A DNA stretch of 64,000 nt from Natronomonas sp. GTDB lineage: Archaea; Halobacteriota; Halobacteria; Halobacteriales; Haloarculaceae. Where the stretch lies: positions 495-64,494 of the forward strand of contig NZ_JAWODL010000031.1 in NCBI RefSeq assembly GCF_046483325.1, read 5' to 3'. The position numbers and the translations under genes are program-made. The notes under the pieces were generated by a model. It saw nothing but the letters and a program-made list of their open reading frames with translations, was not told the origin of the DNA and did no database searches. Below, piece by piece: positions 1,810 to 50,874 of the stretch. Within the stretch, counting starts at the first letter, position 1, and every line of letters begins with the position of its first letter.

Positions 1810-2745
1810 GTGAGCGTTCTCGCATCGCTCGTTAGTTTCATCATCCAGACGTTCGCCGTTTCGTCGATCTATATATTGGTCGCGATCGGCCTCTCGATCA
1901 CGCTCGGGACGTTAAAGTTCGTGAACTTCGCCCACGCAGCACTGTATCTGGTGGGCGTCTATCTCGGTCTCCTCGTCGCACTGCAGGTCCGGTTTTCCGG
2001 CGATATCGCACGAAGTCTCGGCATCGAGAGTTTCGGGCTCGAATGGGGCTTTCTGGCCGCGCTCATCATCGTCCCGATCATCGCGTTCGGTATCGGGTTG
2101 CTTATGGAGCGATATCTGGCGCGGCCGTTCTACGATCGCCCCGACACCGACCAGATCTTGGTCACGTTCGGCGCGTTGTTGATCGTCCAGGAGTTGATCC
2201 GGGCGATCGTCGGTGGCCGATCGATCAACTTCTCGCGTCCGGAGTGGGCGGCCGGCGCAATAAGTCTCGGGCCGCTCGGTTCCGTGGCACGCTGGCGACT
2301 CTCCATTATCGCAATCACGGCGGTCCTGGTCTTGGCGGTGTACCTGTATATCGAGTACACTGACGTCGGACTCGCCGTCCGGGCCGGTACGGAAGACACT
2401 GAAATGCTAAACCTGCTTGGCGTCCGGGCGACTCGCCCGTTTTTGGTCATTTTCGGGATCGGTTCCGGACTGGCCGGTGCTGCGGGCGTCGTTGGTGGAC
2501 CGGTCTTCAGCGTCGTGCCGGAGATCGGCGTCGGTGTGCTCGTTCCCGCGTTCCTCGTCGTCGTCGTCGGTGGTGTCGGTAGTATCGTCGGGTCAGTGGT
2601 CGGTGGACTCCTGATCGGGGCCGTCGAGGTCGGCTTGCAGATGAACTTCCCGACGTGGTCGTCGGTCGGCATCTACGTTCTGGCAGCGATCGTGCTGCTC
2701 GTTCGGCCGGCCGGCCTCCTCGGCACAGTGGAGGTGGGAGAATGA
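1810..2745 (+). CDS. livH: Branched-chain amino acid-type ABC permease
   Basis: NFAHAALY motif, hydrophobic helices, GGVGSI.G C-terminal motif; GTG start. Confidence 0.88.
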   Translation: MSVLASLVSFIIQTFAVSSIYILVAIGLSITLGTLKFVNFAHAALYLVGVYLGLLVALQVRFSGDIARSLGIESFGLEWGFLAALIIVPIIAFGIGLLMERYLARPFYDRPDTDQILVTFGALLIVQELIRAIVGGRSINFSRPEWAAGAISLGPLGSVARWRLSIIAITAVLVLAVYLYIEYTDVGLAVRAGTEDTEMLNLLGVRATRPFLVIFGIGSGLAGAAGVVGGPVFSVVPEIGVGVLVPAFLVVVVGGVGSIVGSVVGGLLIGAVEVGLQMNFPTWSSVGIYVLAAIVLLVRPAGLLGTVEVGE

Positions 2746-3827
2746 GTGAAGAAACCAAGTCAGTCGGCGCGACCGAAACCGCCGATTCGGAGGACTTCTT
2801 CGATCGGTGGGACCGCTTCCGGGAGCGGGAGTCGTTCTCGATCCTCGGTGCGATCGCGTTCGTGATAGTCTTCCCGATGATCTTCACGAATCTGCCGGCC
2901 TACAGCGGTTACATGTCCCTCGTCGAGTTGATCTACATCTGGGCGATCTTCGCGATCGGGTTCGACCTCCTCTTGGGATACACCGGATTGCTGTCGTTCG
3001 GGCACGCGGCGTTCTGGGGAGCCAGCGCGTACGCCGCTGGGATCTTCAGCGCCAACTTCTACGGCGAGCCGCTTCTCATGGTGCTCGTCGCTACGGTCGT
3101 CGCGGTCCTCCTCGCGCTCATCCTCGGGTTCCTCTCGTTGCGCCGCGGCGGAATATACTTCGCTATCCTCACGCTGGCGTTCGGACAGATGTTCTACTAT
3201 CTCGCTCTCGGCCCGTTGGAACCGCTCACTCGCGGTGAAGACGGCTTTACCGGCGTCAGCGTCGAACCGCTGCTCGGAGCGTTGGAGCTCGGTCGAGGAT
3301 TCGCCGGCGTGCTTGGCACTCTGCTCCACGACATCGGCTACGTGTTCTACGCCGGGTTCTTCATCTTGGCAATCGTGGTTGCTGTCCGGATCGTCCGGTC
3401 GCCCTACGGGGCTATTTTCGAAGCCATCCACCAAAACGAACAACGCGTCAATTTCCTCGGACTCAACGTCTGGCGGTACAAACTCGCCGCGTTCACTATC
3501 TCGGGTGCCTTCGCCGGCGTCGCGGGCGGACTCCACACCGTCCACGCGACGTACGTCGCGGTCGACTCGCTGTACTGGATCACGAGCGGTGACATCGTGA
3601 TCATGACCGTCCTCGGCGGCGTCGGGTCGATCTTCGGACCGGTTACGGGCGTGATTGCGTTCCTGTACGTCGAGAACATCGTCTCCGGCGAGATCGCCTT
3701 CTGGCTGCTCGTCCTCGGTGTGTTGTTCGTGACCGTCGTCTGGCTGTTCCCCGCCGGAATCTGGGGAATCGTCACCGACGTTCGGTCGGCCGTTCGAAAC
3801 GTGTTCGATTCGGAGAGTGATTCTTGA
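2742..3827 (+). CDS. livM: Branched-chain amino acid-type ABC permease
   Basis: GYTGLLSFGHAAFWG and YFAILTLAF motifs; ATG overlaps the livH stop (ATGA). Confidence 0.88.
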   Translation: MSEETKSVGATETADSEDFFDRWDRFRERESFSILGAIAFVIVFPMIFTNLPAYSGYMSLVELIYIWAIFAIGFDLLLGYTGLLSFGHAAFWGASAYAAGIFSANFYGEPLLMVLVATVVAVLLALILGFLSLRRGGIYFAILTLAFGQMFYYLALGPLEPLTRGEDGFTGVSVEPLLGALELGRGFAGVLGTLLHDIGYVFYAGFFILAIVVAVRIVRSPYGAIFEAIHQNEQRVNFLGLNVWRYKLAAFTISGAFAGVAGGLHTVHATYVAVDSLYWITSGDIVIMTVLGGVGSIFGPVTGVIAFLYVENIVSGEIAFWLLVLGVLFVTVVWLFPAGIWGIVTDVRSAVRNVFDSESDS

Positions 3828-4582
3828 TGCTGTTAGAAACGAAAGATCTCACGAAAAAGTTCGGTGAACTCACTGCGGTCGACGAAGTAGATCTTCAGAT
3901 CGAGGAGGGCGAGTCGCTGAGCATTATCGGCCCCAACGGGGCCGGCAAGTCGACTACGGTGAATCTGATCACGGGTCTGTTGAATCCGTCGGAAGGGAAA
4001 GTGCTCTTCCGCGGCAACGACATCACCGGCAAGGAGCCCCACAGCATCGTCCAACTGGGACTGAGCAAATCCTTCCAGACGGCCTCGATCTTCCCGGAAC
4101 TGACCGTTCAGCGCAATGCGACCGTCGCGGCACTCGGCGCAGAACACGGGTCGTTCAGCCTGAACTTCCTCCGACGACTCGTCGATTACGACGACGTCAC
4201 GGAGCGGGCCGAGGAGACGCTTCGGGACATGGGGCTGTACGAACAGCGCGGCATTCCAGCCGAATCGCTCCCCTACGGTGACAAGCGACGGCTCGAAATG
4301 GCCCTGGCGCTGGCGAGCGATCCCGACCTGCTCTTTCTCGACGAGCCGACGGCCGGGATGTCACCTGACGAGACCGACGACACCGTCGACCTCATAGAGC
4401 GGATCAAGGAAGAACGTGGCGTCACCATCGTCCTCATCGAACACGACATGGAGATAATCTTCCGCGTCTCCGACCGTATTGCGGTCCTCAACCGCGGCGC
4501 GAAGATCGCCGACGGGACGCCCGACGAGATTCGGAACGATCCGGAGGTCCAGGATGCGTACCTGGGAGGGGTCGAGCTATGA
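3827..4582 (+). CDS. livG: ABC ATP-binding protein
   Basis: GPNGAGKST Walker A, LPYGDKRRLE signature, LFLDEPTAG. Confidence 0.92.
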   Translation: MLLETKDLTKKFGELTAVDEVDLQIEEGESLSIIGPNGAGKSTTVNLITGLLNPSEGKVLFRGNDITGKEPHSIVQLGLSKSFQTASIFPELTVQRNATVAALGAEHGSFSLNFLRRLVDYDDVTERAEETLRDMGLYEQRGIPAESLPYGDKRRLEMALALASDPDLLFLDEPTAGMSPDETDDTVDLIERIKEERGVTIVLIEHDMEIIFRVSDRIAVLNRGAKIADGTPDEIRNDPEVQDAYLGGVEL

Positions 4583-36566: not shown

Positions 36567-38204
36567 ATGATCGTCGGTCGAGCCGTAACTGAACGGATGA
36601 TCGAACGCGGAATCGACACCGTCTTCGGAATCCCGGGAAAGCAGTCGCTACCACTGAACGAAGCCATTGAGCACCGCGATGGAATCGATTTCATCGTCGC
36701 CCGCCACGAGACCGCGGTCACCCACCAGGCATGGGGGTACGCCGAAACCAGCGGTCGGATGGCCGCGACGGTCGTCATCCCGGGTCCGGGTGATATGAAC
36801 GCGATGAACGGTTTGAAGAACGCGCTCAACGACTGTACGCCGATGTTACACGTCGCTATCGAAACTGATCCGAGGCTTCGGGGTGGTGATGCGATCCACG
36901 AGACGCCGCCGGATACGTACGATCCAATCCTCAAGGAGAACCTCATTGTGACGAATCCCAACAGCGTTGCTGCGACCGTCGACCGGGCCATCAGTATCGC
37001 TCGCTCCTCGCCCCGAGGTCCCGTCCGAGTCGGCATCCCAAAACCCCACCTCGCGATGGACGTGACACAGGTGGATATCGACGAAGACGACGACGAGGGC
37101 GTCCACCATCCTCCCGAGGAGCCGCTTGCGGCGGCCGTCGACTTACTCGCAGCAGCTGACGATCCCATACTCATCGCCGGTGGTGGCGTTCGTGCCTCAA
37201 ACGCAGCGTCGTCACTTAGGAAGGTCGCCGAACGGCTCCGTTCGCCCGTCGTGACTACGTACAAAGGAAAAGGCGTCTTTCCGGAAGACCACGAGCTGAG
37301 CGCGGGCGTGTTGAGCGCCAGTGCGTCCCCGGAACTTCTCTCGCTCATGCGAACGGCCGACGTCGGCCTCGTGGTGGGGTCGGATCTCGACGCCGTCGCG
37401 ACCCGCGGTTTCACCGTCGAGCTACCGACACAACTTGTGCATGTGGCGCTCGATATCGACGACATCGGAACAGGGTACGACCTCACGATAGGTATCGTGG
37501 CCGACGCGAGCGCGACGCTCGATATGCTAGATACCCGACTCACTGCAGCTGGCGTCTCGAACGCCGGCGACGACCGTGCCTCGAACGTTCGGCGAGCCAT
37601 CAGTCGGCGGATCGAGCCGTTACTCGACGACATGCCACCGATCACGTCGGTTCGCGCGCTCCAGACGGTTCGCGAGGCACTCCCACGGGAGGCGATCGTC
37701 GCCGTCGACGCGGGCGGCTTCCGCGTGTGGGGACTCAACGTTTTCGACGCCTACGGGCCGCGTCGGTACGTCAACCCGGGGTCGTGGGCGACGATGGGTA
37801 CGGGCCTCCCGTCGGCGATCGGCGCGCAGTTCGCGAACCCGGAGATGCCGGTCGTCGCGGTGACCGGCGACGGCGGCCTCATGATGTGTATACACGAGCT
37901 ACATACGCTCGCCGCCGAGGGGATTCCCGTCACTGTCGTCGTGTTGAACAACAACGATTATGCGATCATCAGCGAGGAGGCCGGACGACGTTACGAACTC
38001 GACCCCGACGAGTACGGGTGGTCGAACGCCCCGCTCGATTTCATTTCGATCGCCGAAGGTATGGGCGTTTCCAGTACCCGTGTCCGAACTCCGGGGGAGC
38101 TCTCGGATGCGATCGCCGACGGTCTCTCGTCGACGTCCCCATTTCTCGTTGAGGTGCCGGTCGACCCGACCGAGCCGCAGGCCAGCGAGTTCATGAACGA
38201 GTAG
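36567..38204 (+). CDS. ThDP-dependent enzyme (second, distinct member)
   Basis: FGIPG, ARHE, GPG, ATMGTGLP, GDGG...NNNDY. Confidence 0.88.
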   Translation: MIVGRAVTERMIERGIDTVFGIPGKQSLPLNEAIEHRDGIDFIVARHETAVTHQAWGYAETSGRMAATVVIPGPGDMNAMNGLKNALNDCTPMLHVAIETDPRLRGGDAIHETPPDTYDPILKENLIVTNPNSVAATVDRAISIARSSPRGPVRVGIPKPHLAMDVTQVDIDEDDDEGVHHPPEEPLAAAVDLLAAADDPILIAGGGVRASNAASSLRKVAERLRSPVVTTYKGKGVFPEDHELSAGVLSASASPELLSLMRTADVGLVVGSDLDAVATRGFTVELPTQLVHVALDIDDIGTGYDLTIGIVADASATLDMLDTRLTAAGVSNAGDDRASNVRRAISRRIEPLLDDMPPITSVRALQTVREALPREAIVAVDAGGFRVWGLNVFDAYGPRRYVNPGSWATMGTGLPSAIGAQFANPEMPVVAVTGDGGLMMCIHELHTLAAEGIPVTVVVLNNNDYAIISEEAGRRYELDPDEYGWSNAPLDFISIAEGMGVSSTRVRTPGELSDAIADGLSSTSPFLVEVPVDPTEPQASEFMNE

Positions 38205-38231
38205 GGCCGGGTTAGCCGTGGGGCGGCGCGT

Positions 38232-38639
38232 TTATGGGTCCGGTCGGTCGATCGTCTGTGCGACGACGTGGTCTGGTTCGATGGTCAGATTTCTTCGATC
38301 GGCGTTCCGATCGTTCGGATACGGACAGCCCCAGTATCGCTCGGACAACCGGTCGATGAATTCGAGCGCGTCCTCGGTCGTATGATCGATCACCGTTCCC
38401 TGGATGATAAGGAACCGATACGGGTCCTCCGAATCGGTCACTGAGACCGACACGTTCGGATCGCCGTCGACGTTCTTCATCTTCCTTGCGTTCGCCTTGC
38501 CGCCGACGTAGAGGTACTCGCCGTCGTAGTCGACCCAAACGGGCGCTTGGTGTGGTCGGCCGTCCGGGAGTATCGTTCCGATGTGTGCGACGTGTGTGCC
38601 CGTCAACAGGTCGGCGTAGTCGTTGGGTATCGACTGCAT
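38232..38639 (-). CDS. PPOX-class (F420/FMN-binding split barrel) oxidoreductase
   Basis: DGRPHQAPVW, KMKNVDGDPNVSVSV. Confidence 0.8.
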   Translation of the reverse strand: MQSIPNDYADLLTGTHVAHIGTILPDGRPHQAPVWVDYDGEYLYVGGKANARKMKNVDGDPNVSVSVTDSEDPYRFLIIQGTVIDHTTEDALEFIDRLSERYWGCPYPNDRNADRRNLTIEPDHVVAQTIDRPDP

Positions 38640-38656
38640 TTGGCTTTCGTATACGG

Positions 38657-39358
38657 CTATCCGCCCAGGTATAGCTTGTTTACTTCTGGATTCTCGAGCA
38701 GTTCGTCGGCGCTGTCCTCGTATCTAACCTGTCCTTGGGCTAACACAAGCCCCCGATCTGAGATGCCCAATCCTGCTCGAGCGTTTTGTTCGACCATCAA
38801 AACCGACGTTCCCAGATCATTGATTTCCTTTATATCTTCGAACACTTCCTCGATGAGCGAAGGGGCCAATCCAGCGCTCGGTTCGTCGATCAACAGTACG
38901 TCCGGATCGATCATCAACGCGCGCGAGAACGCCAACAGTTGGCGCTGGCCGCCCGAGAGCGTGTTCGCCTTCTCGGATCGCTTCTCTTCGAGGATCGGGA
39001 ACCGATTAAACAGTTCGCCGATCATTTCCTCGGTTTTATCGACGGTCACCCCGCCGATCTCGAGGTTCTCCTCGATCGTCAACGTGCCGAACACGTTGTC
39101 GGTCTGGGGAACGTAGCTGACGCCTTTCCGAACGATGTCCTCGGGGAGCAGTCCGGATATCTCAGTTCCGCGAAGCGTGATTCGCCCGTTCCATGGCTGG
39201 ACAAGGCCGAATATGGTTTTTATCGCCGTGCTCTTTCCGGCGCCGTTGGGACCGATAATGCACACGATCTCCTCCTCCTCGAGATGCATCGAGACGTCGT
39301 TGAGGATCTGTAAGTCCCCGTATCCGCTGTCGACGTTCTCGACGTCGAGTACGCTCAT
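38657..39358 (-). CDS. livF: ABC ATP-binding protein
   Basis: GPNGAGKST, LSGGQRQ, IDEPSAG, MVEQN. Confidence 0.9.
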   Translation of the reverse strand: MSVLDVENVDSGYGDLQILNDVSMHLEEEEIVCIIGPNGAGKSTAIKTIFGLVQPWNGRITLRGTEISGLLPEDIVRKGVSYVPQTDNVFGTLTIEENLEIGGVTVDKTEEMIGELFNRFPILEEKRSEKANTLSGGQRQLLAFSRALMIDPDVLLIDEPSAGLAPSLIEEVFEDIKEINDLGTSVLMVEQNARAGLGISDRGLVLAQGQVRYEDSADELLENPEVNKLYLGG

Positions 39359-40167
39359 CAGGCACCACCCAGGTACGCTTCGATGACGCGTTCGTCCGAT
39401 TGCACGGTTCGTGGATTGCCCTCGAGCAACACACGACCGCGGTTGAGAACGATCACATCCTCGGCCAGTTCCATGAGAAAGTCGATGTCGTGTTCGATAA
39501 TAAAGAATGTGTACCCCTGTTCCTCGTTGAGTTCGCGAATGAACGATGCGATCTCGTTTACTAGAACCGGGTTGATTCCCGCCACCGGCTCGTCGAGCAG
39601 TAGTACGTCGGGTTCGGCCATCAGTGCGCGTGCGAGCGCCAACAGTTTCATTTGTCCGCCCGACAGGCTCGTCGTCGGTTCGTTCGCGAGATGGTCGATC
39701 TCAAAGAAATCCAACAGTTCGCTCGCCCGGTGGAGGTTCTCGCGTTCCTGTTCCGTGACGTCAGATCCGGAGAGGAACAACTGTGGGATCGATTCGCCGA
39801 GTTGCGATTGAGCTCCGGTGAGCATGGCCTCTCGGACGGTCATGCTCTCGAGCCGCCGAGGCGTCTGAAACGTCCTGAGTAGTCCTTCCTGTACGATCTG
39901 GTTCGGTTGTCGTCCGGTCACCTCGGTTCCGTTCACCACGACGCTTCCGGCATCCGGTTCGTAAAAGCCGGAGATGAGGTTGAAAAGCGTCGATTTACCG
40001 GCTCCGTTCGGACCGATAATACCAGTTATCGTTCCGGATTCGACGTCCAGCGAGACGTCATCGGCGGCGACCAGTCCACCGAAGCTCTTTTTAATATTTC
40101 GCACCTCCAAGACGGCGTTTTCCTTGTTCAGGTGGGCACCGTCGTACGTGAGGTCGTACGAACTCAT
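39358..40167 (-). CDS. livG: ABC ATP-binding protein
   Basis: GPNGAGKST, LSGGQMK, LDEPVAG, IEHD. Confidence 0.9.
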   Translation of the reverse strand: MSSYDLTYDGAHLNKENAVLEVRNIKKSFGGLVAADDVSLDVESGTITGIIGPNGAGKSTLFNLISGFYEPDAGSVVVNGTEVTGRQPNQIVQEGLLRTFQTPRRLESMTVREAMLTGAQSQLGESIPQLFLSGSDVTEQERENLHRASELLDFFEIDHLANEPTTSLSGGQMKLLALARALMAEPDVLLLDEPVAGINPVLVNEIASFIRELNEEQGYTFFIIEHDIDFLMELAEDVIVLNRGRVLLEGNPRTVQSDERVIEAYLGGA

Positions 40168-41204
40168 TTTCCGTCCTCCGTTGAGGTCATGCTCTTTGGC
40201 CAGATCAGTTCGTCTCGCGGCGGGTAGATCCCCTCTGGCTTGAATCGCATTATCAGGATGATCAGGAGTCCGATAGTCAACACACGGACCGGTCCGGTGG
40301 ATATCGCCGCCAACGCCCCGATACTCGTGACAAACCGAGTACCTTCGAGCACCGCGACGAGGACGATTCCACCGACGACCGCGCCGCGATTACTTCCGCT
40401 TCCGCCGAGGATCACTGCCACCCAGATGTAGAACGTCTGAAGCGGTTGGAGATCCGTTGGATCGACGTAGTTGATGAAGTGGGCGTAGTAGACGCCCGCG
40501 ATCGTCATTATTACACAGCCGATGACGAACGCCTGCATCTTGAAACTAAAGCTGTCCTTGCCGAGCGACTCGGCCAGCTCCTCGTCGGCTTTTATCGTTC
40601 GCATGACGCGTCCCCATGGGGACCGATGAATCCGGCGCAACAGCAGGTACACCACGACGGACAGTATCGTGATGATCATCAGGTTCGTCGCCGTCGTGGT
40701 GAGAAATAGTTCTTCGAGTATCCGCGGGATACCTGCTAACCCGGCCATTCCTGCGGTGAAGTCGCTCTCGTTCGCCATGATCAGCCGGAATATCTCCGAG
40801 AAGCCGAGCGTCGCGATGGCGAGGTAATCGGCTCGGAGTCGAATCGCCGGAAGCCCGACGATGATCGCGGCGACGACGCTGAGAACGATCGCGACGACGA
40901 GTGCAACGAGTGGATGCCAATCCAGCCCAAGCGGGGATGTTCGCGCGGTCGAGAGCGCGGTGACGTACATACCAAGGCCCCAAAACGCGACGACTGCGAA
41001 GTTAATTATCCCCCCGTACCCCCATTGGACGTTCAAGCCGAGTGCGAGCATTACGTACATGCCAGAGAGCGCGAGCAGGTACAACAGGTACGAAAAACTC
41101 AGCGCACCGACTGCCACCGCGATCACCGTGAGCGCGGTGAGCGCGAGCAACACTAACGAGGTGGTGCCTATGGACGTCTCGGTTCTCGGCAGGGTAACGT
41201 TCAT
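40164..41204 (-). CDS. livM: ABC permease
   Basis: GYGGIINFA, DYLAIATLGFSE, GGSGSNRG. Confidence 0.88.
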   Translation of the reverse strand: MNVTLPRTETSIGTTSLVLLALTALTVIAVAVGALSFSYLLYLLALSGMYVMLALGLNVQWGYGGIINFAVVAFWGLGMYVTALSTARTSPLGLDWHPLVALVVAIVLSVVAAIIVGLPAIRLRADYLAIATLGFSEIFRLIMANESDFTAGMAGLAGIPRILEELFLTTTATNLMIITILSVVVYLLLRRIHRSPWGRVMRTIKADEELAESLGKDSFSFKMQAFVIGCVIMTIAGVYYAHFINYVDPTDLQPLQTFYIWVAVILGGSGSNRGAVVGGIVLVAVLEGTRFVTSIGALAAISTGPVRVLTIGLLIILIMRFKPEGIYPPRDELIWPKSMTSTEDGK

Positions 41205-42109
41205 GTCGCCGCCCTCCCGAGTATTCCGCTCGGTCTGACCAGAAGGATGAGTATCATGATGACGAATGCGACCGCGGCGCCGTATTCGGAGTCGAGTCCG
41301 GGCAGCAGCGTTGTCATCTCGTGTGCGAGCCCGATCGCGAACCCGCCGAGCATGGCGCCGTAGATGCTACCGATCCCGCCGAGAATCACGGCGGCGAATA
41401 CGAGAAGCAGGATGTCGAACCCCATGAGCGGCCGAACGAGTGTGAACAGGCCGAGGAAGATACCGCCGAGGGCGGCGAGCCCGCCGCCTCCGACCCACAT
41501 GGTCAACACGGTTTCCCGCGGTCGAATGCCGCTTATTCTAGCGAGGTCGCGATTATCGGCGGCCGCACGCATTTTCTTCCCGAGCATCGAGTACTGCAGC
41601 ACGAAGTGCAGCAGTAGAACAACGATCGCGGTGGTCAACACGATAACGAGCATCCGGTTCGTGATCGCCAGACCGGTCGCCTCCCGAATCGGACCGATCG
41701 GTCCGCTTCTCGGGAACGAGTAGGTGTTCGCGTCCGCCCCGAATCCGATCCACACGAGTGACCGATACACGAGCGCGACGCCGAAGCTCGTAATCAGCAG
41801 CGCTATCGGTCCGCTGTCGAGCGGTTTGAAGATGAGGTAATGTGTCCCGACGGCGACGACGATGCCGACCACGACGCCGACCGCGATCGTCGCGAGCAGG
41901 ATGAGTGAAAATACGCTCTCCGGTTCGAATCCCAGTCGAACGAGCCCCAGGTTCGCCATCAGTCCGCCGTACGCGCCCAGGACCATCAGATCTCCGTGAG
42001 CAAAGTTCGGGAAATCGCCGATGCTGTACACGAGCGACAGTCCCACGCCGCCGAGAACGATGATGCTCCCGTATACTATTCCGTCTATTGCTAGTTGTAG
42101 CGCTGACAT
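41201..42109 (-). CDS. livH: ABC permease
   Basis: NFAHGD, MRAAADNRDLA.ISGI, GGIGSIYG. Confidence 0.88.
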   Translation of the reverse strand: MSALQLAIDGIVYGSIIVLGGVGLSLVYSIGDFPNFAHGDLMVLGAYGGLMANLGLVRLGFEPESVFSLILLATIAVGVVVGIVVAVGTHYLIFKPLDSGPIALLITSFGVALVYRSLVWIGFGADANTYSFPRSGPIGPIREATGLAITNRMLVIVLTTAIVVLLLHFVLQYSMLGKKMRAAADNRDLARISGIRPRETVLTMWVGGGGLAALGGIFLGLFTLVRPLMGFDILLLVFAAVILGGIGSIYGAMLGGFAIGLAHEMTTLLPGLDSEYGAAVAFVIMILILLVRPSGILGRAAT

Positions 42110-42174
42110 CGTCTAATAGTGATGGTATACTCGTAAGGGTACCATTATAGATCTTCCGCTGGGGTTATTTTTTC

Positions 42175-42288
42175 TGCGATCTGGACCACGTCGGTTCCCT
42201 AGATGATGCTCCCGTCGATCGCGATCCGGACACCGCTGCTGACCGAAATAAACAGCATCGGGACGGCTTCCTGGTCTGTCAGTCACTG
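42175..42288 (-). pseudogene. Diverged fragment of the binding-protein gene (copy of ~44838-44951)
   Basis: First 26 nt identical (tgcgatctggaccacgtcggttccct), then scattered mismatches; contains an in-frame stop. Confidence 0.85.
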
Positions 42289-43467
42289 TCACCAGTTGAT
42301 CGCTAGTTTCGGTTCGATCCCGTTGTCCTCGGCGACTGTCTGGTATCCCTGGATTATTTCCTCCGTGGTGTCCAACGCCTCATCCGGCCTGAACGATTTT
42401 ATATCGACTCCCAGAATCTCGTCCATTGCATCGCGAGCGGTTTCGGTAAACAAGATTGCCCCGTCGTTTTCGATCCGCTCGATGCCGTCGTACCTGTTCG
42501 CCTCTTGGCTCAGCCGCTCCGCCTCGTTAAGCGATATGTCGTCCGGGAGTACGACCTCCGCGCCATCCCGATCCAGCCGCACCGGGTAACCGCCCTCCAT
42601 CCCATTGGGTCCTGGAGCGTGGATCACCAAGCCAGAGTCGCACAACACGGACTTGACGATCCTTGCTGAGAGCGTTCCGGTGAGGACGCTGATTTCCCGA
42701 GCCGACGGTTCGGTCGGGAACGGGAGTCTGCGGGATTCGAACTCGGCGTCGATGTCGATCTCGTCTGATACGTCCCGTCCGTCAACGAGGACTTTAGCGT
42801 AGAAGGGTCTGTCCTCGGTGCTGCGATAAAATAAGATCGGGTGGATGACCGAGTGGGCAGCAACCACGTACGCCGATACCTCTGTCATCGGTACATCATA
42901 CATATCGCTCGCGACACGTTTTATCGGTGGAACGAGGTGGCCGACGTTCCCCGTACCTACGAGGGGCTGGTAACCGGCCCCCGCCAGCGCTGGATTCACC
43001 ACATCCGGCATCGAGGCGTTTATGACGTGAGGGTCGGTCCTATCGGCCCGCTCTATCCCGCGCATCACATTGTAGACAAGTGGGATCTGTCCGGGAACGA
43101 TAGGGGCGTATCCCGGCCCCGTCGCGGTGAACCCGATGAGTCTGTCACGCTGTTCTTCGGGCAGTTCCTCGAAAGGAGCGTACCGGAGCAGCGTCGCCGC
43201 CGTAAAAACGATATCCGGCTCAACGGACTCGATCAGCTCGACGATGTCATCCACATCCAATAGATCGAGGGGTTCGAAACGTATCTTCGGGTTTTTGCCG
43301 AGATGGAGTGACCGGTATCTAGCCGTGTTCGACCTTGTCTGCCCGAGTTCGGCCATAACATCCGCGGCGATGATCTCGTCGATCGCGGGATCACCACAGA
43401 GGATCTGGATCGTTTCGTAGCCCACGCCGCCCAGGCCGGCGATGAGTACTGTTCTATCTCGCACCAT
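42289..43467 (-). CDS. Uncharacterised NAD(P)-binding protein, probable LDH/MDH-like fold
   Basis: IAGLGGVG Rossmann motif, INASMPD, AAH, HAPGPNG.EGGYPV C-terminal pattern. Confidence 0.65.
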   Translation of the reverse strand: MVRDRTVLIAGLGGVGYETIQILCGDPAIDEIIAADVMAELGQTRSNTARYRSLHLGKNPKIRFEPLDLLDVDDIVELIESVEPDIVFTAATLLRYAPFEELPEEQRDRLIGFTATGPGYAPIVPGQIPLVYNVMRGIERADRTDPHVINASMPDVVNPALAGAGYQPLVGTGNVGHLVPPIKRVASDMYDVPMTEVSAYVVAAHSVIHPILFYRSTEDRPFYAKVLVDGRDVSDEIDIDAEFESRRLPFPTEPSAREISVLTGTLSARIVKSVLCDSGLVIHAPGPNGMEGGYPVRLDRDGAEVVLPDDISLNEAERLSQEANRYDGIERIENDGAILFTETARDAMDEILGVDIKSFRPDEALDTTEEIIQGYQTVAEDNGIEPKLAINW

Positions 43468-43599
43468 ACGCGAAACAACCAACATCCTTATTTAATGTTT
43501 TCGGAATTTCTAGGAGCATGCCCCGCCGTTCACAGGGCTCTATTGAACCCACTGATGGCGTAGGGACTGGTCGTCTGAACGGGGGATGTGAAAGGAGTC

Positions 43600-43694
43600 A
43601 ATGGTTCGGGGGCTTCGACATCGTTCCCCTGAAAGGGGCGTAGAACGTGTCAGTACGGCGTTTCAGTTCTTGAAGCCAGCGTTCGGGGTTCTCA
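43600..43694 (-). mobile_element. Short IS6-like transposase C-terminal relic
   Basis: Minus-strand peptide PERWLQELKRRTDTFYAPF resembles the ERxxxExKRRxxxF motif; no ends found. Confidence 0.45.
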
Positions 43695-43991
43695 CGCTAC
43701 GGCGACGGGTGATCTGTGTACGGGTAAACCTGGTGACGACCGTGTCCTAGCTCGCCTGTCTGTACGATCGGCGGTTCGCGGCGACACACTCGGGGATTCC
43801 TGGACAAAATCGTCGATTTATCAGGGTGTTTCTCGACGGCGCGACCGACGCGTGCAATAGACGGCGCACTTCTCGATTCGGGGAGGTTCATGTCGATCAA
43901 TTCCAAAAGGAGCCAAAGCGTCCAAACTTCCCGCTACGTTAACACTGCCTGGGTGATATCGGATAACGATTTACTGTATATGGAGGCGATA

Positions 43992-45326
43992 TTAAATATC
44001 GTCTCCCGAAATCGTCTCCTCTGCGATCTGATACTCGTGGTCCTCTACGGAGTACACTTCGTACACGCCGACCGGATCGCCGTTCTCGTCGAGCTGTCCC
44101 GGGCCGCCCGTGCCGATGAAGTCAACGTCGTCCGAGCTGCCATCTTGGAGGATCTCCTTTGCCGCTTCGAACGTACTAATCTGTTCTCCCGGCGGTCTCG
44201 TGACCTCGCGGATGTGTTCGGCAATGCCCGGCCCCGTGAACTCGTCGGCGGCCTCGATCGCCATCGCCACCCAGTGCACCGCGTCGTACACGTACGCCGA
44301 GTAGACGGTCGGCGATTCGCCGTACTCGTCTTCGAAGCGGGCTTCGAACTCGTCGTACACGTCGGAATCCGAGGGCGGCCCCTCACGAACGCCCTTGAGG
44401 TTCTCTTGGCTTCCCGGCTCCGTGTTCTCGAGAATCGTGTCGGCGATGACGCTCTCTGCACCGTAGTAGTCGACCTCCTCGTGGTACCCCTGATCGTAGG
44501 CGTTGTTGAACATGACCGTCGCCTCGTCGGCGTACGTCACGAACACCCACGCAGTCGCATCCGTCGCTGCCATGTCCGAAAGATCCGGCGCGTAGCTCGC
44601 CTCACCTGGGTCGTGTGAGCCGTTGTACGCGACCGTTCCATCGTACTCATTCTCGAAGATATCCTGGATCCCGTTGCCGAGTGCCTCGCCGTAATCGTTG
44701 TTGATCCACGTGATCGCGATGGTATCGTGACCGTCGTTGGAGATCATGTCCGCCATGACGACACTCTTTCCGGCACCGCTCGGGACTGGCCGGAGCAAGT
44801 CGGGGTAATCGGACACGGTCGCCCCCGAACTCGACTGTGCGATCTGGACCACGTCGGTTCCCTGGATGACGCTCTCGTGGATCGCGATCGAGACACCACT
44901 GCTGACGGCGCCGAACAGCATCGGAACGCCTTCTTGATTTATGAGCCGCTGTGCGGCGTTGACCCCGGCTTCGTTCGAACTCTCGCTGTCTTCGATGATG
45001 ACGTCCAACTCCAGGTTGTCCGGCCCGATACCGATCGCATTGATGTCCTCGAGCGCGAGTTCGAGCCCACGAAGGTTGTACTGTCCGTATGGTGCGAGCG
45101 TCCCGGTTTCCGGCGTGATCATGCCGATCGTGTAGGCGTCGAGATCACTGCCGCCGCCGTTTCCGCCATCGCCGTTCCCGTTCCCGTCGCCGTTGCCACC
45201 GCCGTTTCCGCCACCGTTGCCGCCGTTGCCATTACCGTTACCCCCCTCGATGCAACCCGCCAGAGAGCCGATAACGGAGACGCCAGTTCCAGCCAGTACT
45301 GCTCTACGTGATATGTTACTATCCAT
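43992..45326 (-). CDS. Liv-type ABC substrate-binding lipoprotein (Tat signal)
   Basis: ISRRAVL, LAGC lipobox, GN linker, GAVSSGV, AYVYDA; true start is well inside the listed ORF. Confidence 0.9.
   Translation of the reverse strand: MDSNISRRAVLAGTGVSVIGSLAGCIEGGNGNGNGGNGGGNGGGNGDGNGNGDGGNGGGSDLDAYTIGMITPETGTLAPYGQYNLRGLELALEDINAIGIGPDNLELDVIIEDSESSNEAGVNAAQRLINQEGVPMLFGAVSSGVSIAIHESVIQGTDVVQIAQSSSGATVSDYPDLLRPVPSGAGKSVVMADMISNDGHDTIAITWINNDYGEALGNGIQDIFENEYDGTVAYNGSHDPGEASYAPDLSDMAATDATAWVFVTYADEATVMFNNAYDQGYHEEVDYYGAESVIADTILENTEPGSQENLKGVREGPPSDSDVYDEFEARFEDEYGESPTVYSAYVYDAVHWVAMAIEAADEFTGPGIAEHIREVTRPPGEQISTFEAAKEILQDGSSDDVDFIGTGGPGQLDENGDPVGVYEVYSVEDHEYQIAEETISGDDI
45150..45245 (-). repeat. 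Gly-Asn(-Asp) linker tandem repeat
   Basis: GNGNGNGGNGGGNGGGNGDGNGNGDGGNGGG after the lipobox. Confidence 0.8.
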
Positions 45327-45553: not shown

Positions 45554-46231
45554 TCAGCGGGCGCGTTCGGCAGCCTCCCCGATCGCTTCCGATAGCGTCG
45601 GGTGGATGTGAACAGTCGCGTACACGTCCTCGAGCGTCGCTCCCATTTCGACCGCCAACCCGACCTCTGTTATCAACTCCGACGCCTCCCGGCCAACGAT
45701 CTGCCCGCCCAGGATCACCCTCGCTCGACCGTCCGCGACGATCCGAACGAACCCAGTGTCGGCGGCGGCGGTCAGGGCTCGTTCGTTCGATCAAAAGGGA
45801 ACTTGTCCGACTATCGGCTCGACCCCAGCTTCGCGTGCTTCGGCTTCCGTCCGCCCGACTGTCGCGATTTCAGGGTCGGGAAAGACCGCGGCGGGAATCG
45901 CGTACCGATCGAGCGCCGCCGCTTCTCCCGCGACCCCCTCAGCGGCGACGATACCTTCGATGCTCGCGACGTGCGCCAACATCGGTTCGCCGGTCACGCC
46001 GCCCGCAGCGAAGATGTGTTTCTGACTAGTTCGGGCGCGGTCATTCGTGGGGATGAACCCCCATTCGTCGGCCTCGATCTCTGCGTTTTCGATCGAGAGT
46101 GTATCGAAACCCGGCTCTCGACCGAGGGCGACTAACACTCGGTCGGCGGCGTAGGTCGAGCGATCGCCGGACTCCGTCTCGGTAATTAACATCCCGTCGT
46201 CACTTCCATACTCGAACTCCTTGCTCGTCAT
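45554..46231 (-). pseudogene. lpdA: Dihydrolipoamide dehydrogenase remnant (5' half deleted, frameshift near 45791)
   Basis: VLVALGR, IFAAGGV.GEPMLAHVA, GF.RIVAD, HIHPTLSEA in two frames; no FAD-binding N-terminus or redox CxxxxC. Confidence 0.85.
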
Positions 46232-46237
46232 GTGGCC

Positions 46238-47251
46238 TTAGAACTCGAGTGTCTCTCGGATCCCGTGCTCGATTCGGGCCGCACTCGGCAGATAGTAGTC
46301 CTCGAGCGCGTACAGCGGGAACGGTGTGTCGTATCCGGTGACGCGCCCGATTGGCGCTTCCTGGTAGAGCATGGCTTCGCGCTGAATCGTGGACGTCAGT
46401 TCGGCCGCCATCCCCGCAGTTTCGGGTGCCTCGTGGACGACGACGCCGCGCCCAGTTCGCTTGAACGCCTCGACGATCGTCTCTTCGTCGAGGGGATAAA
46501 TGGACCGCACGTCGACGACGTGACAGTCGATGCCGTCTTTAGCGAGCTTCTCCACGGCTTCCATCGTCGGTCGAGTCATCGCCCCCCAGGTAAACACGGC
46601 GACGTCCGTCCCCTCGCGAAGCACCTTCGCTTCGCCGATCGGGATCGTGTATCGCTCATCCGGCACCTCGTGTTTGAACGAGCGGTAGATGAGCTTCGGC
46701 TCGAGAAACATCACCGGATCCGGGTCCTCGATCGCGCTGGCGAGGAGTCCCTTCGCGTCGTACGGCGTCGACGGCACGACCACCTTGAGCCCCGGCTGGT
46801 GTGCAAAGAACGCCTCCGTCGATTCGGAGTGGTGTTCGGGCGCGCGGATACCACCGCCGTACGGGACTCGAACCGTCAGCGGGCAGGTAAAGCGTCCCCG
46901 AGACCGCGTTCGAAACCGCGCCGCGTGGTTTACCAACTGGTCGAACGCGGGATAGACGAACCCCATAAACTGGAGCTCAGGTACGGGGCGGAGCCCCCGG
47001 ACCGCCATCCCGATCGACGTGCCGATGATGGCCGACTCCGCAAGCGGTGTGTCCATGACCCGATCCGGACCGAACTCGTCCAACAACCCCTCTGTTGCCC
47101 GGAACACACCGTCGTTGTCACCGACGTCTTCGCCGAGGACGACGACCCGCTCGTCGCGTTTCATCTCCGTGTCCAGTCCCTCCCGAACCGCCTGTACCAG
47201 CGTCAACGTCTGCGTTTCGACGGCCGCCGGATCTTGATTCGTTGCTCCCAT
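46238..47251 (-). CDS. pdhB: 2-oxoacid dehydrogenase E1 beta subunit
   Basis: GEDVG..DGVFRATEGL, DTPLAE, EHHSES, VHEAP, RVTGYDTP. Confidence 0.92.
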   Translation of the reverse strand: MGATNQDPAAVETQTLTLVQAVREGLDTEMKRDERVVVLGEDVGDNDGVFRATEGLLDEFGPDRVMDTPLAESAIIGTSIGMAVRGLRPVPELQFMGFVYPAFDQLVNHAARFRTRSRGRFTCPLTVRVPYGGGIRAPEHHSESTEAFFAHQPGLKVVVPSTPYDAKGLLASAIEDPDPVMFLEPKLIYRSFKHEVPDERYTIPIGEAKVLREGTDVAVFTWGAMTRPTMEAVEKLAKDGIDCHVVDVRSIYPLDEETIVEAFKRTGRGVVVHEAPETAGMAAELTSTIQREAMLYQEAPIGRVTGYDTPFPLYALEDYYLPSAARIEHGIRETLEF

Positions 47252-47254
47252 TGG

Positions 47255-48361
47255 TCAATCCCGTAGGAACGCCTCGTCACCGTAGCGTTCGTGCAGTTTA
47301 CGGAACTCGTCGCGCTGTGCTTGGATTCGGTCCGGAAGCTCCTCGAAGACGTACTCGAAGATGTCGTCGGGGTCCGGTTCGTTCGCTTCGGCGATCTCAA
47401 CCGCCGCTTCGATCTCCTCGGTGTTCGCCTCGTCGATCGCGCCGATCTGCTCGTCGCTCAGAATCCCTCGATCCCGCAGGAACGTCTCCAAGCGCAAGAT
47501 CGGATCGCGCTTCCGCCACGGCTCCGTCTCGGCCTCTTCGCGGTAGTTGGACGGATCGTCGCTCGTGTTGTGCGCCCCCGAGCGATACAACAGCGCCTCG
47601 ACGAGTGTCGGACGGAGCTGGTCAGGGCCGGGGGTGCGCGCCTTCCCGAGCGCCCGTTTGGTCACCTCGTAGACGGCGAGTGGGTCCATCCCGTCGACTC
47701 GGACCCCCTCGAAACCGTATCCCGCCGCACGCGACGCGAGAGTCGACGCTGCTGTCTGCTTTTCGATCGGCGTGGAGATCGCCCACTGGTTGTTCAGACA
47801 AAAGAACACGTTCGGCGTATCGAACACGCCCGCGAAGTTGAGCCCCTCGTGAAAGTCACCTTCGCTCGTCGCGCCGTCGCCGAAATAACAGATGACGGCG
47901 CTGTCGTCGTTATCATCGAGTTTCGACACCATTCCCGCGCCGGTGGCGTGTGGGATCTGATCGCCGATCGTGATGCAGATCGGGAACACGTTTGTACCCT
48001 CCGGGACGACGCTTCCCTCCTCGTAGCCCATGTAGTATTGCAAGATGTGTTCGAGTCCGAGTCCGTGGGTGATCGTCGCGCCGTGATCTCGGTAGTACGG
48101 GACGATCCAATCGTCGTCATCTAAGGCGAAAGCGCTTCCAACGAGCGCTCCCTCGTGGGCCTGCATCGTCGAGTACGTCCCCATACGACCCTGGCGTTGG
48201 AGGCTCACGGCTCGCTCGTCGAACTGTCGACAGAGCCGCATCTGGCTGTACATGTCGACGAATACGTCGTCTTCGAGATCCGGCGGCGATTCGCCTTCCA
48301 GGACTCTTCCCTCGGTGTCAAGTATCTGTTCGTCCGCTCTGAAATCTGGTTCGATACTCAT
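47255..48361 (-). CDS. pdhA: 2-oxoacid dehydrogenase E1 alpha subunit
   Basis: QRQGRMG, GDGATSEGDF..NN, GAHNTSDDP. Confidence 0.92.
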   Translation of the reverse strand: MSIEPDFRADEQILDTEGRVLEGESPPDLEDDVFVDMYSQMRLCRQFDERAVSLQRQGRMGTYSTMQAHEGALVGSAFALDDDDWIVPYYRDHGATITHGLGLEHILQYYMGYEEGSVVPEGTNVFPICITIGDQIPHATGAGMVSKLDDNDDSAVICYFGDGATSEGDFHEGLNFAGVFDTPNVFFCLNNQWAISTPIEKQTAASTLASRAAGYGFEGVRVDGMDPLAVYEVTKRALGKARTPGPDQLRPTLVEALLYRSGAHNTSDDPSNYREEAETEPWRKRDPILRLETFLRDRGILSDEQIGAIDEANTEEIEAAVEIAEANEPDPDDIFEYVFEELPDRIQAQRDEFRKLHERYGDEAFLRD

Positions 48362-48461: not shown

Positions 48462-49556
48462 TCACCACTGTGGCTTCCGCGTCGTGTGCACCTTTTCGCG
48501 CATCGCCCTCATCGCCTCAATCCGCTGGCTGGCGATCCCGTTGGCGATCGCGTAGGTCGGCTCGTCCGTCTCCGCCGCTCGCTGTCCGATCGTCATCATC
48601 CGGTCGTAGATGCCGTCGATCATCGCGCGGGCTCTGTGATGTTTGTAGCCGCCCCTGCGGAGGAGATCCGTGTCGTCGATCGTCCGGCCAGAGTTGGCGA
48701 GGTAGTCGGGTGCGTACAGGATGTCCTCCTCGTGGAGCATCGTTCCGTGGCGCTCCTCGTCGTCGAGTTGATTGTTCGCCGCTCCGCAGACGATGTCGCA
48801 CTGTAGCCGCGGGATCGTCTCGTCGTTCAACACGAACCCGAGCGCCGAGGGCGCGAACACGTCGCAGTCGACGTCAAAGACGTCGTCGGGGTCGACCGAG
48901 CCGACGCCATACTCGCTTTCGAGGTAATCGACTTGCGCCTCATTGATGTCTGAGACCGTCACCTGCGCCCCTCTCTCGTGGAGGTACTGAACGATGCTCG
49001 TCCCCATCTCGCCGACGCCCTGCACGACGATGTGCAGATCGGAGAGCTCCCGATCGTCGTACGTGAGGTCACAACAGGCTTCCATCGCCTTGATCACGCC
49101 GAGTCCGCCGCCGTGATATCCATCGGGGTGATCGAACTGCTCGGGTAGTCCGATGATGTAGTCGGTCTCGTCGCCGATCCAGCGCATCGCTTCCTCGTTC
49201 GTCCCGACATCCGCTCCCGTGACGAACCGACCGCCGAAACTGTCGACCATGCGCCCGTACGCGCGATATAGCTCCTCGCTGCGCTGGTCGGGATCGTCGA
49301 CCCAGATCACGGCCTTCCCGCCGCCCATGTTGATCCCGGAGATCGCGTATTTGTAGGTCATCGCACGCGAGAGCCGAAGCGCGTCGACGATGGCTTCCTC
49401 TTCGGATTCGAAGGCATATCGTCGGGTTCCGCCCGCGGCCGGACCGAGCGTCGTGTCGTGAATCGCGATGAATCCGCGAAGCCCGACTTCGTCGTCCCGG
49501 AACGCCTTGAATTCGTTGTGGCCATGCTCGGCTAGTAACGCTTGCAGATTTACCAT
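48462..49556 (-). CDS. Leu/Phe/Val dehydrogenase
   Basis: IAIHDTTLGPA.GG, MTYK, GGGKAVI, GADVG, QGVGEMG, GAANNQL, PDYLANSG. Confidence 0.9.
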   Translation of the reverse strand: MVNLQALLAEHGHNEFKAFRDDEVGLRGFIAIHDTTLGPAAGGTRRYAFESEEEAIVDALRLSRAMTYKYAISGINMGGGKAVIWVDDPDQRSEELYRAYGRMVDSFGGRFVTGADVGTNEEAMRWIGDETDYIIGLPEQFDHPDGYHGGGLGVIKAMEACCDLTYDDRELSDLHIVVQGVGEMGTSIVQYLHERGAQVTVSDINEAQVDYLESEYGVGSVDPDDVFDVDCDVFAPSALGFVLNDETIPRLQCDIVCGAANNQLDDEERHGTMLHEEDILYAPDYLANSGRTIDDTDLLRRGGYKHHRARAMIDGIYDRMMTIGQRAAETDEPTYAIANGIASQRIEAMRAMREKVHTTRKPQW

Positions 49557-49734
49557 GTCGTCGATTACCATACAGACCAGGTGTTGTTATGTGTTTTGGA
49601 ACGTGTCCCCTGGCGCTTCACCTTTCGACTCGTCGCCACTCCCCGAAGCACGGTCGCGGCGATACACTGTGTCCGTCGAACTCGAACTCCACTCGCCGAT
49701 ACTATTTTGTACGTGGAAGCGGCAGATCCGTCGT

Positions 49735-50055: not shown

Positions 50056-50874
50056 TTAGCGACCCTTGCTCCCCCAGCCGAAGGCCAGCCAGCCGCCGTC
50101 GGCATTGAGAATCTCGCCGGTCGTGTAGTGGTTCCCCTCGGCGAGAAACAACGCGACGTTCTGCATCTCGTCGAGCGTTCCGAATCGATCCAGGGGGACG
50201 CGGTGTTCGATGTGCGTATCGTCGTAGCCGTAGTACGGCCAGTTGTCCTCGTCGAGCATTTCGTCGTCGCCGCTTTCGCGCGTCTGCTCGTCCAGTTGGG
50301 TTTTGATAAACCCGGGTGCGAGTGCGTTGACCTGGATGTCGTGTTCAGCGAGTTCGACCGCGAGGTTCCGGGTGAGGTTGTTGACACCGCCCTTCGAGGC
50401 GTTATAGGGGGCTCGGCCCTGGATCCCGATCTTTCCAAATATACTGGAGATGTTGATGATCTGACCACCCGTTCCCTGGTCGATCATCCGTGTTCCGGCC
50501 GCTTGAGCGCCGTAAAATACGCCTGAGAGGTTGGTGTTAATGACGCTTTGCCAGTCCTCCGGATCCATCTCCATCGCGGGTTCGATCACGGAGATCCCTG
50601 CATTGTTGACCATGATGTCTATCGAACCGTACTCTTCGATCGCCGATTCGGCGAGTGCGTGGGCATCGTCGGGATTCGAGATGTCAGCCTCGACGGCGGT
50701 CGCGGTTCCACCGTTGGCGGTTATTTCATCGGCGGTTTCTTGTGCGCGTTCGAGCGCACGCGAGTTCGTGATGACGTTCGCACCCTCCTCGGCGAACTTG
50801 GTTGCGATCGCTGCGCCGATACCGCTACTTGAGCCGGTTACAACCGCTGTTTCGTCGGCTAATCTTTCGGACAT
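50056..50874 (-). CDS. SDR-family oxidoreductase (paralog of 28201-29007)
   Basis: TGSSSGIG, NNAG, YNASK, NALAPG. Confidence 0.9.
   Translation of the reverse strand: MSERLADETAVVTGSSSGIGAAIATKFAEEGANVITNSRALERAQETADEITANGGTATAVEADISNPDDAHALAESAIEEYGSIDIMVNNAGISVIEPAMEMDPEDWQSVINTNLSGVFYGAQAAGTRMIDQGTGGQIINISSIFGKIGIQGRAPYNASKGGVNNLTRNLAVELAEHDIQVNALAPGFIKTQLDEQTRESGDDEMLDEDNWPYYGYDDTHIEHRVPLDRFGTLDEMQNVALFLAEGNHYTTGEILNADGGWLAFGWGSKGR

Follow-up and report, generated by a model that had tools for sequence, protein, structure and literature searches.

What is the role of an enzyme gene lodged in a Liv-type ABC transporter operon, with the binding-protein gene on one side and livH on the other, and can it reveal which compounds the surrounding genes act on? 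This question is raised by a gene of Natronomonas sp. (Halobacteria), carried by the minus strand at positions 42289-43467 of a stretch of 64,000 nucleotides that was analysed as a whole and that we call the window (contig NZ_JAWODL010000031.1, positions 495 to 64,494 of the forward strand). A preliminary description of this DNA had presented the product as an oxidoreductase of the lactate/malate dehydrogenase (LDH/MDH) fold, acting on 2-hydroxy/2-oxo (or imino) acids, probably pathway-defining and physically embedded in the ABC operon. The embedding is as described. As for the function, we lean, with slightly better than even confidence, toward a functional NAD(H)-dependent oxidoreductase that would belong to a distinct family of the LDH/MDH superfamily, would accept a nitrogen-containing substrate in a rebuilt pocket, and would have been inserted in the Liv operon.

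Reading frame and fold of the protein

The gene is an intact open reading frame (ORF) of 392 codons followed by a stop codon (42289-42291), as given by the ORF list, the translation, and the full-length alignment of homologues (protein P0001). The frame stays open from 42289 to 43485 on the minus strand (398 codons), and a longer form could start at an alternative ATG at 43485. We take the ATG at 43467 as the correct start and consider the one at 43485 unlikely, because the close homologues are all 392 amino acids (aa) long and start with M-x-RDRTV, and because a TATA-like element (TTAAATAA, 43488-43495, minus strand) is located around 25 nt upstream of the former. This element, which overlaps the sequence leading up to the ATG at 43485, is the putative own promoter of the gene; judged by general knowledge of haloarchaeal promoters, its spacing to the ATG fits a leaderless haloarchaeal transcript, and the gene probably possesses such a promoter. 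The public gene call gives a protein of 378 aa that begins at residue 15 (region concerned, 43426-43467, minus strand). This start, 14 residues late, is probably wrong, since the protein would then lack strand beta-1 as well as the two leading glycines of GxGxxG, while the 392-aa start agrees with all homologues. The gene appears functional, being full length and under purifying selection, with a dN/dS of 0.15-0.25 against three haloarchaeal homologues.

The LDH/MDH fold had been proposed from a handful of motifs, all of which we located by script in the intact ORF. Three partly independent routes, which combine a predicted model with sequence profiles, confirm this fold. Indeed, the AlphaFold2 model of the protein, built on an alignment of 93 family members (A2), reaches a pLDDT of 96.8 and a pTM of 0.94, and the top Foldseek matches to this model in the PDB are all LDH/MDH structures (E 2e-13, probability 1.00, TM 0.65-0.72 when normalised on the target). 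VIA-align, which is independent of Foldseek, superposes the model on the MDH of Haloarcula marismortui (2j5k) with a Z of 24.1 and a root-mean-square deviation (rmsd) of 3.0 A over 278 aa. At the profile level, A2 retrieves LDH/MDH chains among the PDB sequences (E 3e-8 to 1e-6), both halves of the protein being aligned. For comparison, we also aligned MDH sequences of the type found in this genome (A3); hhalign matches A2 to this second alignment over 273 columns, with a probability of 97.5% and an E of 7e-12. Column by column, D36 is matched to MDH D34, SMP-D to SNPVD, GTGN to GFGG, AAH to GEH, and GGYPVRL to FGVPVKL, which reproduces the equivalences listed in the preliminary description and lies far beyond chance. 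The structure search thus returned neither a different fold nor an already characterised enzyme, and no solved structure nearer than LDH/MDH was found by the structure and profile searches of the PDB.

The distance to the known members is large. In Pfam, no model matches the protein above cut-off (Epimerase stays at E 0.097, and Sacchrp_dh_NADP at E 0.24, with 12.2 bits vs a cut-off of 25.1), and neither Ldh_1_N nor Ldh_1_C matches it at E<=10. Among the NCBIfam models, none passes either: Malate_DH_Halo reaches 16.9 bits, on residues 183-326 only, vs a cut-off of 550, which the separate canonical MDH of the same genome exceeds (593 bits). A phmmer search of the PDB sequences with the single protein gave nothing significant, so that the family profile is needed to detect the relationship.

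Two other enzyme types come close enough in these searches to be weighed. The first is the GH4 glycosidases (e.g., 5c3m, 1up7, 1obb), which form the second tier of the VIA-align results (Z 16-20). They share with our protein an LDH-like fold with NAD and a length of around 400 aa, and their alignment reaches further into its C-terminal extension (to around residue 373-391); this likeness is at the fold level only. An enzyme of this kind would keep NAD+ tightly bound and regenerate it in a redox-assisted elimination, hydrolysis, or epimerisation, without net dehydrogenation, and the space left by the lost LDH substrate residues (see below), as well as some sugar or triose contexts of the homologues (Dak1/Dak2, transaldolase), could accommodate such a chemistry. 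However, the structural score is clearly higher for MDH (Z 24), the profile searches give no GH4 signal at the sequence level, and most of the genomic contexts relate to nitrogen metabolism and not to carbohydrates. We consider this possibility improbable.

The second type is represented by the saccharopine dehydrogenases (PF03435; 4ina, 8deb, 1e5l), whose N-terminal Rossmann pattern, with D-L-x-D on beta-3 followed by P-D-V-V-x-x-A, is similar to that of the family. The database name "saccharopine dehydrogenase" borne by some relatives comes from this similarity. A saccharopine-dehydrogenase-like NAD(P) enzyme of the PF03435/PF16653 type, acting on amino acids, opines, or polyamines, would suit the amino-acid and amine contexts of the family. 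It would also agree with the N-terminal Sacchrp_dh_NADP matches, which are weak here but reach 8.5e-9 among the relatives (61 of the 93), and with the profile matches to saccharopine and carboxyspermidine dehydrogenases in the PDB, which cover residues 4-106 only. On the contrary, the matches stop with the Rossmann half (the first 90-100 residues or so), no Sacchrp_dh_C match is found in the protein using Pfam, and the C-terminal domain appears LDH-like and aligns with Ldh_1_C-type sequence. In VIA-align, the saccharopine-type enzymes only reach a Z of 12-14, mainly through this same Rossmann half (around 200 residues at an rmsd >5 A), vs 24 for MDH. Hence, we regard a saccharopine-type enzyme as very improbable.

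Predicted cofactor site, proposed catalytic histidine, and substrate pocket

How much of the LDH/MDH active site is retained? We counted the conservation of each motif over the 93 sequences of A2, and took the pocket equivalences from the hhalign columns, backed by an HMMER alignment to the LDH 9dq7, i.e., from sequence alignment as sole basis. All the coordinates of this section are on the minus strand. The glycine-rich dinucleotide-binding loop, GLGGVG (residues 11-16, 43420-43437), is almost invariant in the family (G11 in 92/93, G13 in 93/93, and G16 in 86/93 members). At the end of strand beta-2, Asp36 (43360-43362), within AADV, takes the place of MDH D34, which has a role toward the NAD ribose in LDH/MDH; this residue suggests a preference for NAD. 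The counterpart of SNPVD is INASMPD (residues 149-155, 43003-43023), in which one residue is deleted relative to SNPVD, so that M153-P154-D155 stands for N140-P-(V)-D143. Asp143 of LDH is kept as D155 (an Asp in 92 of the 93 members), and column 153 is aromatic or hydrophobic across the family (F, Y, L, or M). Further on, G171-x-G173-N174 corresponds to the G-x-G-T/G that precedes helix alpha-1F, N174 being an Asn in 84/93 members. His205 (42853-42855), in AAH, aligns both by hhalign and by HMMER with His195, the catalytic acid/base of LDH/MDH, and is a His in 81 of the 93 sequences. A haloarchaeal subclade with Gln at this position also carries LLPY in the loop where the others have LLRY, which hints at an activity that is different, or lost, in that branch.

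On the contrary, the differences fall on the residues by which a 2-oxo acid is held and polarised. Arg171, which binds the substrate carboxylate in LDH/MDH, is aligned with P181, and its column contains no conserved basic residue in the family (A/P/G). Asp168, the partner of the catalytic His, is aligned with L178, in a column without conserved acid (L/V/I). Asn140 and Thr246, both from the substrate pocket, are aligned with M153 and I259. As judged from the aligned residues, the protein appears to retain its cofactor site and general acid/base and to have lost the features that define a 2-oxo-acid enzyme. The replacement of Arg171, Asp168, Asn140, and Thr246 implies that a simple 2-oxo/2-hydroxy acid is probably not the substrate. 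By analogy with LDH/MDH, the reaction would consist in a nicotinamide hydride transfer coupled to a proton transfer through His205, in a pocket rebuilt by the exchange of the 2-oxo-acid-holding and polarising residues for hydrophobic residues or Pro.

The family can also be recognised by features of its own. Its C-terminal domain carries the signature HAPGPxG(L/M)xGGYPV (residues 283-296, 42580-42621), in which conservation reaches 90% or more at P287, G289, G292, G293, and P295; in our protein, HAPGPNGMEGGYPV and the LP..IS..EA tail that follows were located at residues 283-316. To summarise the comparison with LDH/MDH (PF00056 + PF02866; 2j5k), both have a two-domain fold (a Rossmann domain and an alpha/beta substrate domain) related by homology at the profile level. 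They also share the catalytic His, the GxGxxG loop with an acidic residue following beta-2, the P-D pair from SNPVD, and the GxG that precedes alpha-1F. On the other hand, the identity is 17-20%, the four pocket residues are replaced, the active-site loop is longer and different, the signature (here HAPGPxGLPGGYPV) is specific, and around 50 additional C-terminal residues extend beyond the LDH fold.

These data bear directly on the function proposed in the preliminary description, that of an L-2-hydroxyacid/2-oxoacid dehydrogenase of the LDH/MDH/HicDH kind. Such an enzyme could act on the branched-chain 2-oxo acids produced by the adjacent Leu/Val-type dehydrogenase and would then define the pathway. 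The fold is a true LDH/MDH fold, L-2-hydroxyisocaproate dehydrogenase (1hyh) is among the structural matches (Z 21.7), and the catalytic His is conserved. Moreover, in one subclade only, the closest haloarchaeal one, Arg95 and Arg107 can be loosely matched to MDH Arg102 and Arg109; they lie in a gapped loop of low-confidence alignment and occur in <10/93 (Arg95) and 21/93 (Arg107) family members. The four exchanges described above, at positions where the family does not preserve the LDH/MDH residues, argue against this function, and homologues found elsewhere are not linked to branched-chain genes. We therefore hold this function to be unlikely, an opinion to which the state of the locus also contributes (see below). 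The imino acid alternative mentioned in the same description, or an amine, fits the contexts of the family better.

Size, distribution, and genomic contexts of the family

Searching 1.84 billion cluster representatives exhaustively with HMMER, we obtained 772 clusters at E<=1e-3, of which 147 also pass E<=1e-30. The family, i.e., around 770 clusters at 50% identity, is spread over bacteria and archaea. As the preliminary description had supposed, it is uncharacterised: no family model covers it, and its relatives bear no functional name, being called in databases either "hypothetical" or "saccharopine dehydrogenase NADP-binding domain protein". In the ESM Atlas, we found only unnamed or Sacchrp_dh_NADP-tagged clusters, without any structure, and our literature search turned up no paper on the family. 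Fused or longer forms were not found either: a 668-aa member (P0163) and the N-terminally extended members have no Pfam domain in their additional part. In Halobacteria, the gene is rare. It is present in 2 of the 401 genomes searched, namely this one and G006 (71% identity), and the other genomes of the same genus that were searched with the protein have no copy. A scan of metagenomes brought up a single contig, which is identical to G006. In a quick maximum-likelihood tree, for which only SH-aLRT supports were calculated, the haloarchaeal sequences form one well-supported clade with a long stem, nested in a group that contains Bathyarchaeota and Anaerolineales sequences.

What do the homologues neighbour? 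We examined 79 genomic loci, clustered their ORFs, and scanned the representatives against Pfam. No single neighbour is conserved across these 79 loci. In G006, the homologue stands alone between pantothenate-pathway genes and the aspartyl-tRNA synthetase gene. In a Haloarculaceae metagenome-assembled genome (MAG; L001, 11176-13913), an M20 peptidase gene overlaps the stop of the homologue and is followed by an Amidohydro_3 (amidohydrolase) fragment. At 4 kb downstream, the same contig carries an IS605 OrfB/TnpB-type gene (L001:15115-16446). No Liv, E1, or ELFV (Glu/Leu/Phe/Val-type) dehydrogenase gene is found near the homologues in L001, L002, and G006. The ORFs selected around L002 matched no Pfam model, probably because they were taken on the wrong strand of GC-rich DNA.

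In bacteria, the homologue is directly followed by a class-III aminotransferase gene in Acidobacteriota, where two SDRs, an M19 dipeptidase, and a beta-lactamase-family protein are also encoded, and directly preceded by an ornithine cyclodeaminase/mu-crystallin gene, behind an ABC transporter, in Desulfobacterota. Around 25 Rhizobiales loci associate it with alanine racemase, AAT (Ntn-hydrolase type), a HAD hydrolase, and an EamA exporter. Loci of Dehalococcoidia contain MttB-superfamily and URO-D-type methyltransferases, those of Desulfovibrionaceae a TRAP transporter with Dak1/Dak2, and single loci a DAO-GNAT fusion with a D-2-hydroxyacid dehydrogenase, an ATP-grasp protein, or a Cys/Met pyridoxal-phosphate enzyme. 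In a proteobacterial MAG (L024), two divergent copies of the family (384-1628, minus strand, and 2676-3830, plus strand) flank OpuAC and ABC genes; this locus, with its glycine-betaine-type OpuAC, would be a good one for substrate hunting.

Read together, these contexts suggest, as a common thread, the uptake and conversion of small nitrogen-containing compounds. On this basis, the substrate would be an alcohol, amine, or imine of the amino-acid, peptide-derived, or amine/betaine type. Since the neighbourhoods are heterogeneous, several functions may coexist, and the members of the family probably differ in what they do.

How substrate specificity evolves is classically illustrated by the LDH/MDH superfamily. 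We have here a large sister family that retains the cofactor site and the catalytic His without the carboxylate-binding arginine, and that is covered by neither Pfam nor NCBIfam models, nor by any structure or assay. Nothing in it is categorically new, and it constitutes a fair target for enzyme discovery. Identifying a substrate would add an activity to the fold and would allow one to annotate several hundred genes called "hypothetical" or misnamed "saccharopine dehydrogenase domain". A bolder generalisation, for which we see a limited chance, is that the whole family of around 770 clusters forms an unrecognised branch of LDH/MDH, in which the NAD site and the His were kept and the pocket was re-tooled for nitrogen-containing substrates. 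If true, LDH-fold dehydrogenases of amines, amino acids, N-acyl-amino acids, or betaine-derived alcohols would give this fold a new enzyme class and, possibly, provide a new scaffold for amine biocatalysis.

The gene within the Liv operon

Is the gene a genuine component of the Liv operon? All genes from 50874 to 38657 lie on the minus strand, and a comparable block is present in another genome of the genus (G403, contig C3), where the LivFGMH, binding-protein, and E1 genes are conserved at around 80% nucleotide identity. Using blastn, we found that window positions 38007-42159 correspond to L093:255-4393 of this genome, and positions 44006-45226 to L093:4393-5613. The G403 stretch is continuous, without N, and both breakpoints meet at L093:4393. 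The 1.85-kb segment 42160-44005, which holds the gene and the spacer upstream of it, is thus a lineage-specific indel, because its two flanks meet at one base in an unbroken contig. In G403, the end of the binding-protein gene (...SAEDL*) is located around 45 nt before livH.

In our window, the same place is occupied by relics. A degraded piece from the interior of a second binding-protein gene (115 bp, 42175-42289, minus strand), 81% identical to 44838-44952 and interrupted by in-frame stops, directly abuts the stop codon of the oxidoreductase gene. Around 12 nt past this fragment, PAEDL*, i.e., the last five codons and the stop of the second binding-protein gene, is preserved at 42145-42162 (minus strand), 35 nt upstream of livH and at the position of the intact gene end (SAEDL*) of G403. 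These relics indicate that a second binding-protein gene once held the canonical place before livH and was then destroyed, and that the oxidoreductase gene now stands between the intact copy and the destroyed one. According to this scenario, a rearrangement would have parted the binding-protein gene from livHMGF, and the oxidoreductase gene would then be expressed from its own putative promoter. The sequence of the locus does not support the gene as an old part of the Liv operon.

These results do not support the other claim of the preliminary description, that the gene is pathway-defining and gives a handle on the substrate of the island. Indeed, the gene is missing from the syntenic operon of G403, is found in only two halobacterial genomes, has homologues in unrelated neighbourhoods, and adjoins a relic; it is a poor guide to the substrates of the Liv transporter or of the products of the decayed 2-oxoacid dehydrogenase genes. 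They also weigh on the 2-hydroxyacid dehydrogenase considered above. The ELFV dehydrogenase, the E1 alpha and beta subunits, and the Liv transporter are encoded next to it, which speaks for such a function, but G403 has this island without the gene, and the island itself is decayed (its E2 is missing and its Lpd gene is a truncated pseudogene).

The same decay could suggest that the gene is only a passenger without current role, or that it encodes a non-catalytic LDH-fold protein, like the LDH domain of UEVLD, stranded there by the rearrangement. The binding-protein relic and the Lpd pseudogene, the sporadic distribution in Halobacteria, and the His-to-Gln subclade go in this direction. On the contrary, the ORF is intact and full length with the low dN/dS reported above, the glycines of the cofactor loop and the signature residues of the family are all present, and a plausible promoter is available. 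Hence, we attribute a low probability to such a passenger.

We come back to a functional NAD(H)-dependent oxidoreductase with a rebuilt pocket, inserted in the Liv operon. Several points plead against it. The pocket residues are taken from sequence alignment, and the promoter from a reading of the sequence. His205 is not universal, being replaced by Gln in five close haloarchaeal relatives (P0014, P0016-P0019), and, because the loop alignment of residues 90-125 is of low confidence, Arg95 and Arg107 could in principle replace Arg102 and Arg109. The contexts of the family are heterogeneous, some of them featuring Dak1/Dak2, transaldolase, or aldehyde:ferredoxin oxidoreductase, and others plain housekeeping genes. 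The indel may also reflect a loss in G403 instead of a gain here. Finally, the event is not recent, since the GC content at third codon positions (GC3) of the gene matches that of its neighbours.

As regards the origin of the segment, a recent transfer on compositional grounds was rejected (GC3 of 0.70 vs 0.68-0.81 for the neighbours). We identified no mobile-element vehicle for the gene, and its flanks have no DNA or translated similarity to those of the haloarchaeal homologues. Upstream of the gene, a non-coding spacer of 524 bp with a GC of 0.54 (43468-43991) extends to the stop of the intact binding-protein gene; it is unique, no second copy being found in the genome.

The other genes of the block, all on the minus strand as said above, are the following. 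Downstream of the oxidoreductase gene, livH (41201-42109) and livM (40164-41204) encode Pfam BPD_transp_2 proteins, and livG (39358-40167) and livF (38657-39358) encode ABC_tran proteins. Upstream, the intact LivJ-type binding protein (43992-45326; Peripla_BP_6, 3.5e-36) comprises 444 aa from MDSNISRR, with a Tat/lipobox-like N-terminus. It is preceded by the genes of the 2-oxoacid dehydrogenase E1 beta (46238-47251) and E1 alpha (47255-48361), of the ELFV dehydrogenase (48462-49571), and of an SDR (50056-50874).

Between E1 beta and the binding-protein gene, a pseudogene of dihydrolipoamide dehydrogenase (Lpd; 45554-46231, minus strand) retains the C-terminal 226 codons or so (the end of Pyr_redox_2 and Pyr_redox_dim), with an in-frame stop around 45788-45790, and the interval from E1 beta to this pseudogene contains no E2 gene. 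Because E2 is missing there and Lpd is truncated, the 2-oxoacid dehydrogenase operon of this locus is broken. In G403, only around 440 bp separate E1 beta from the binding-protein gene. A second E1 alpha/beta locus exists elsewhere in our genome (G000:C37:130370-132408), whose DNA is 69% identical to window positions 46251-48284, and this locus may represent the functional copy of the 2-oxoacid dehydrogenase.

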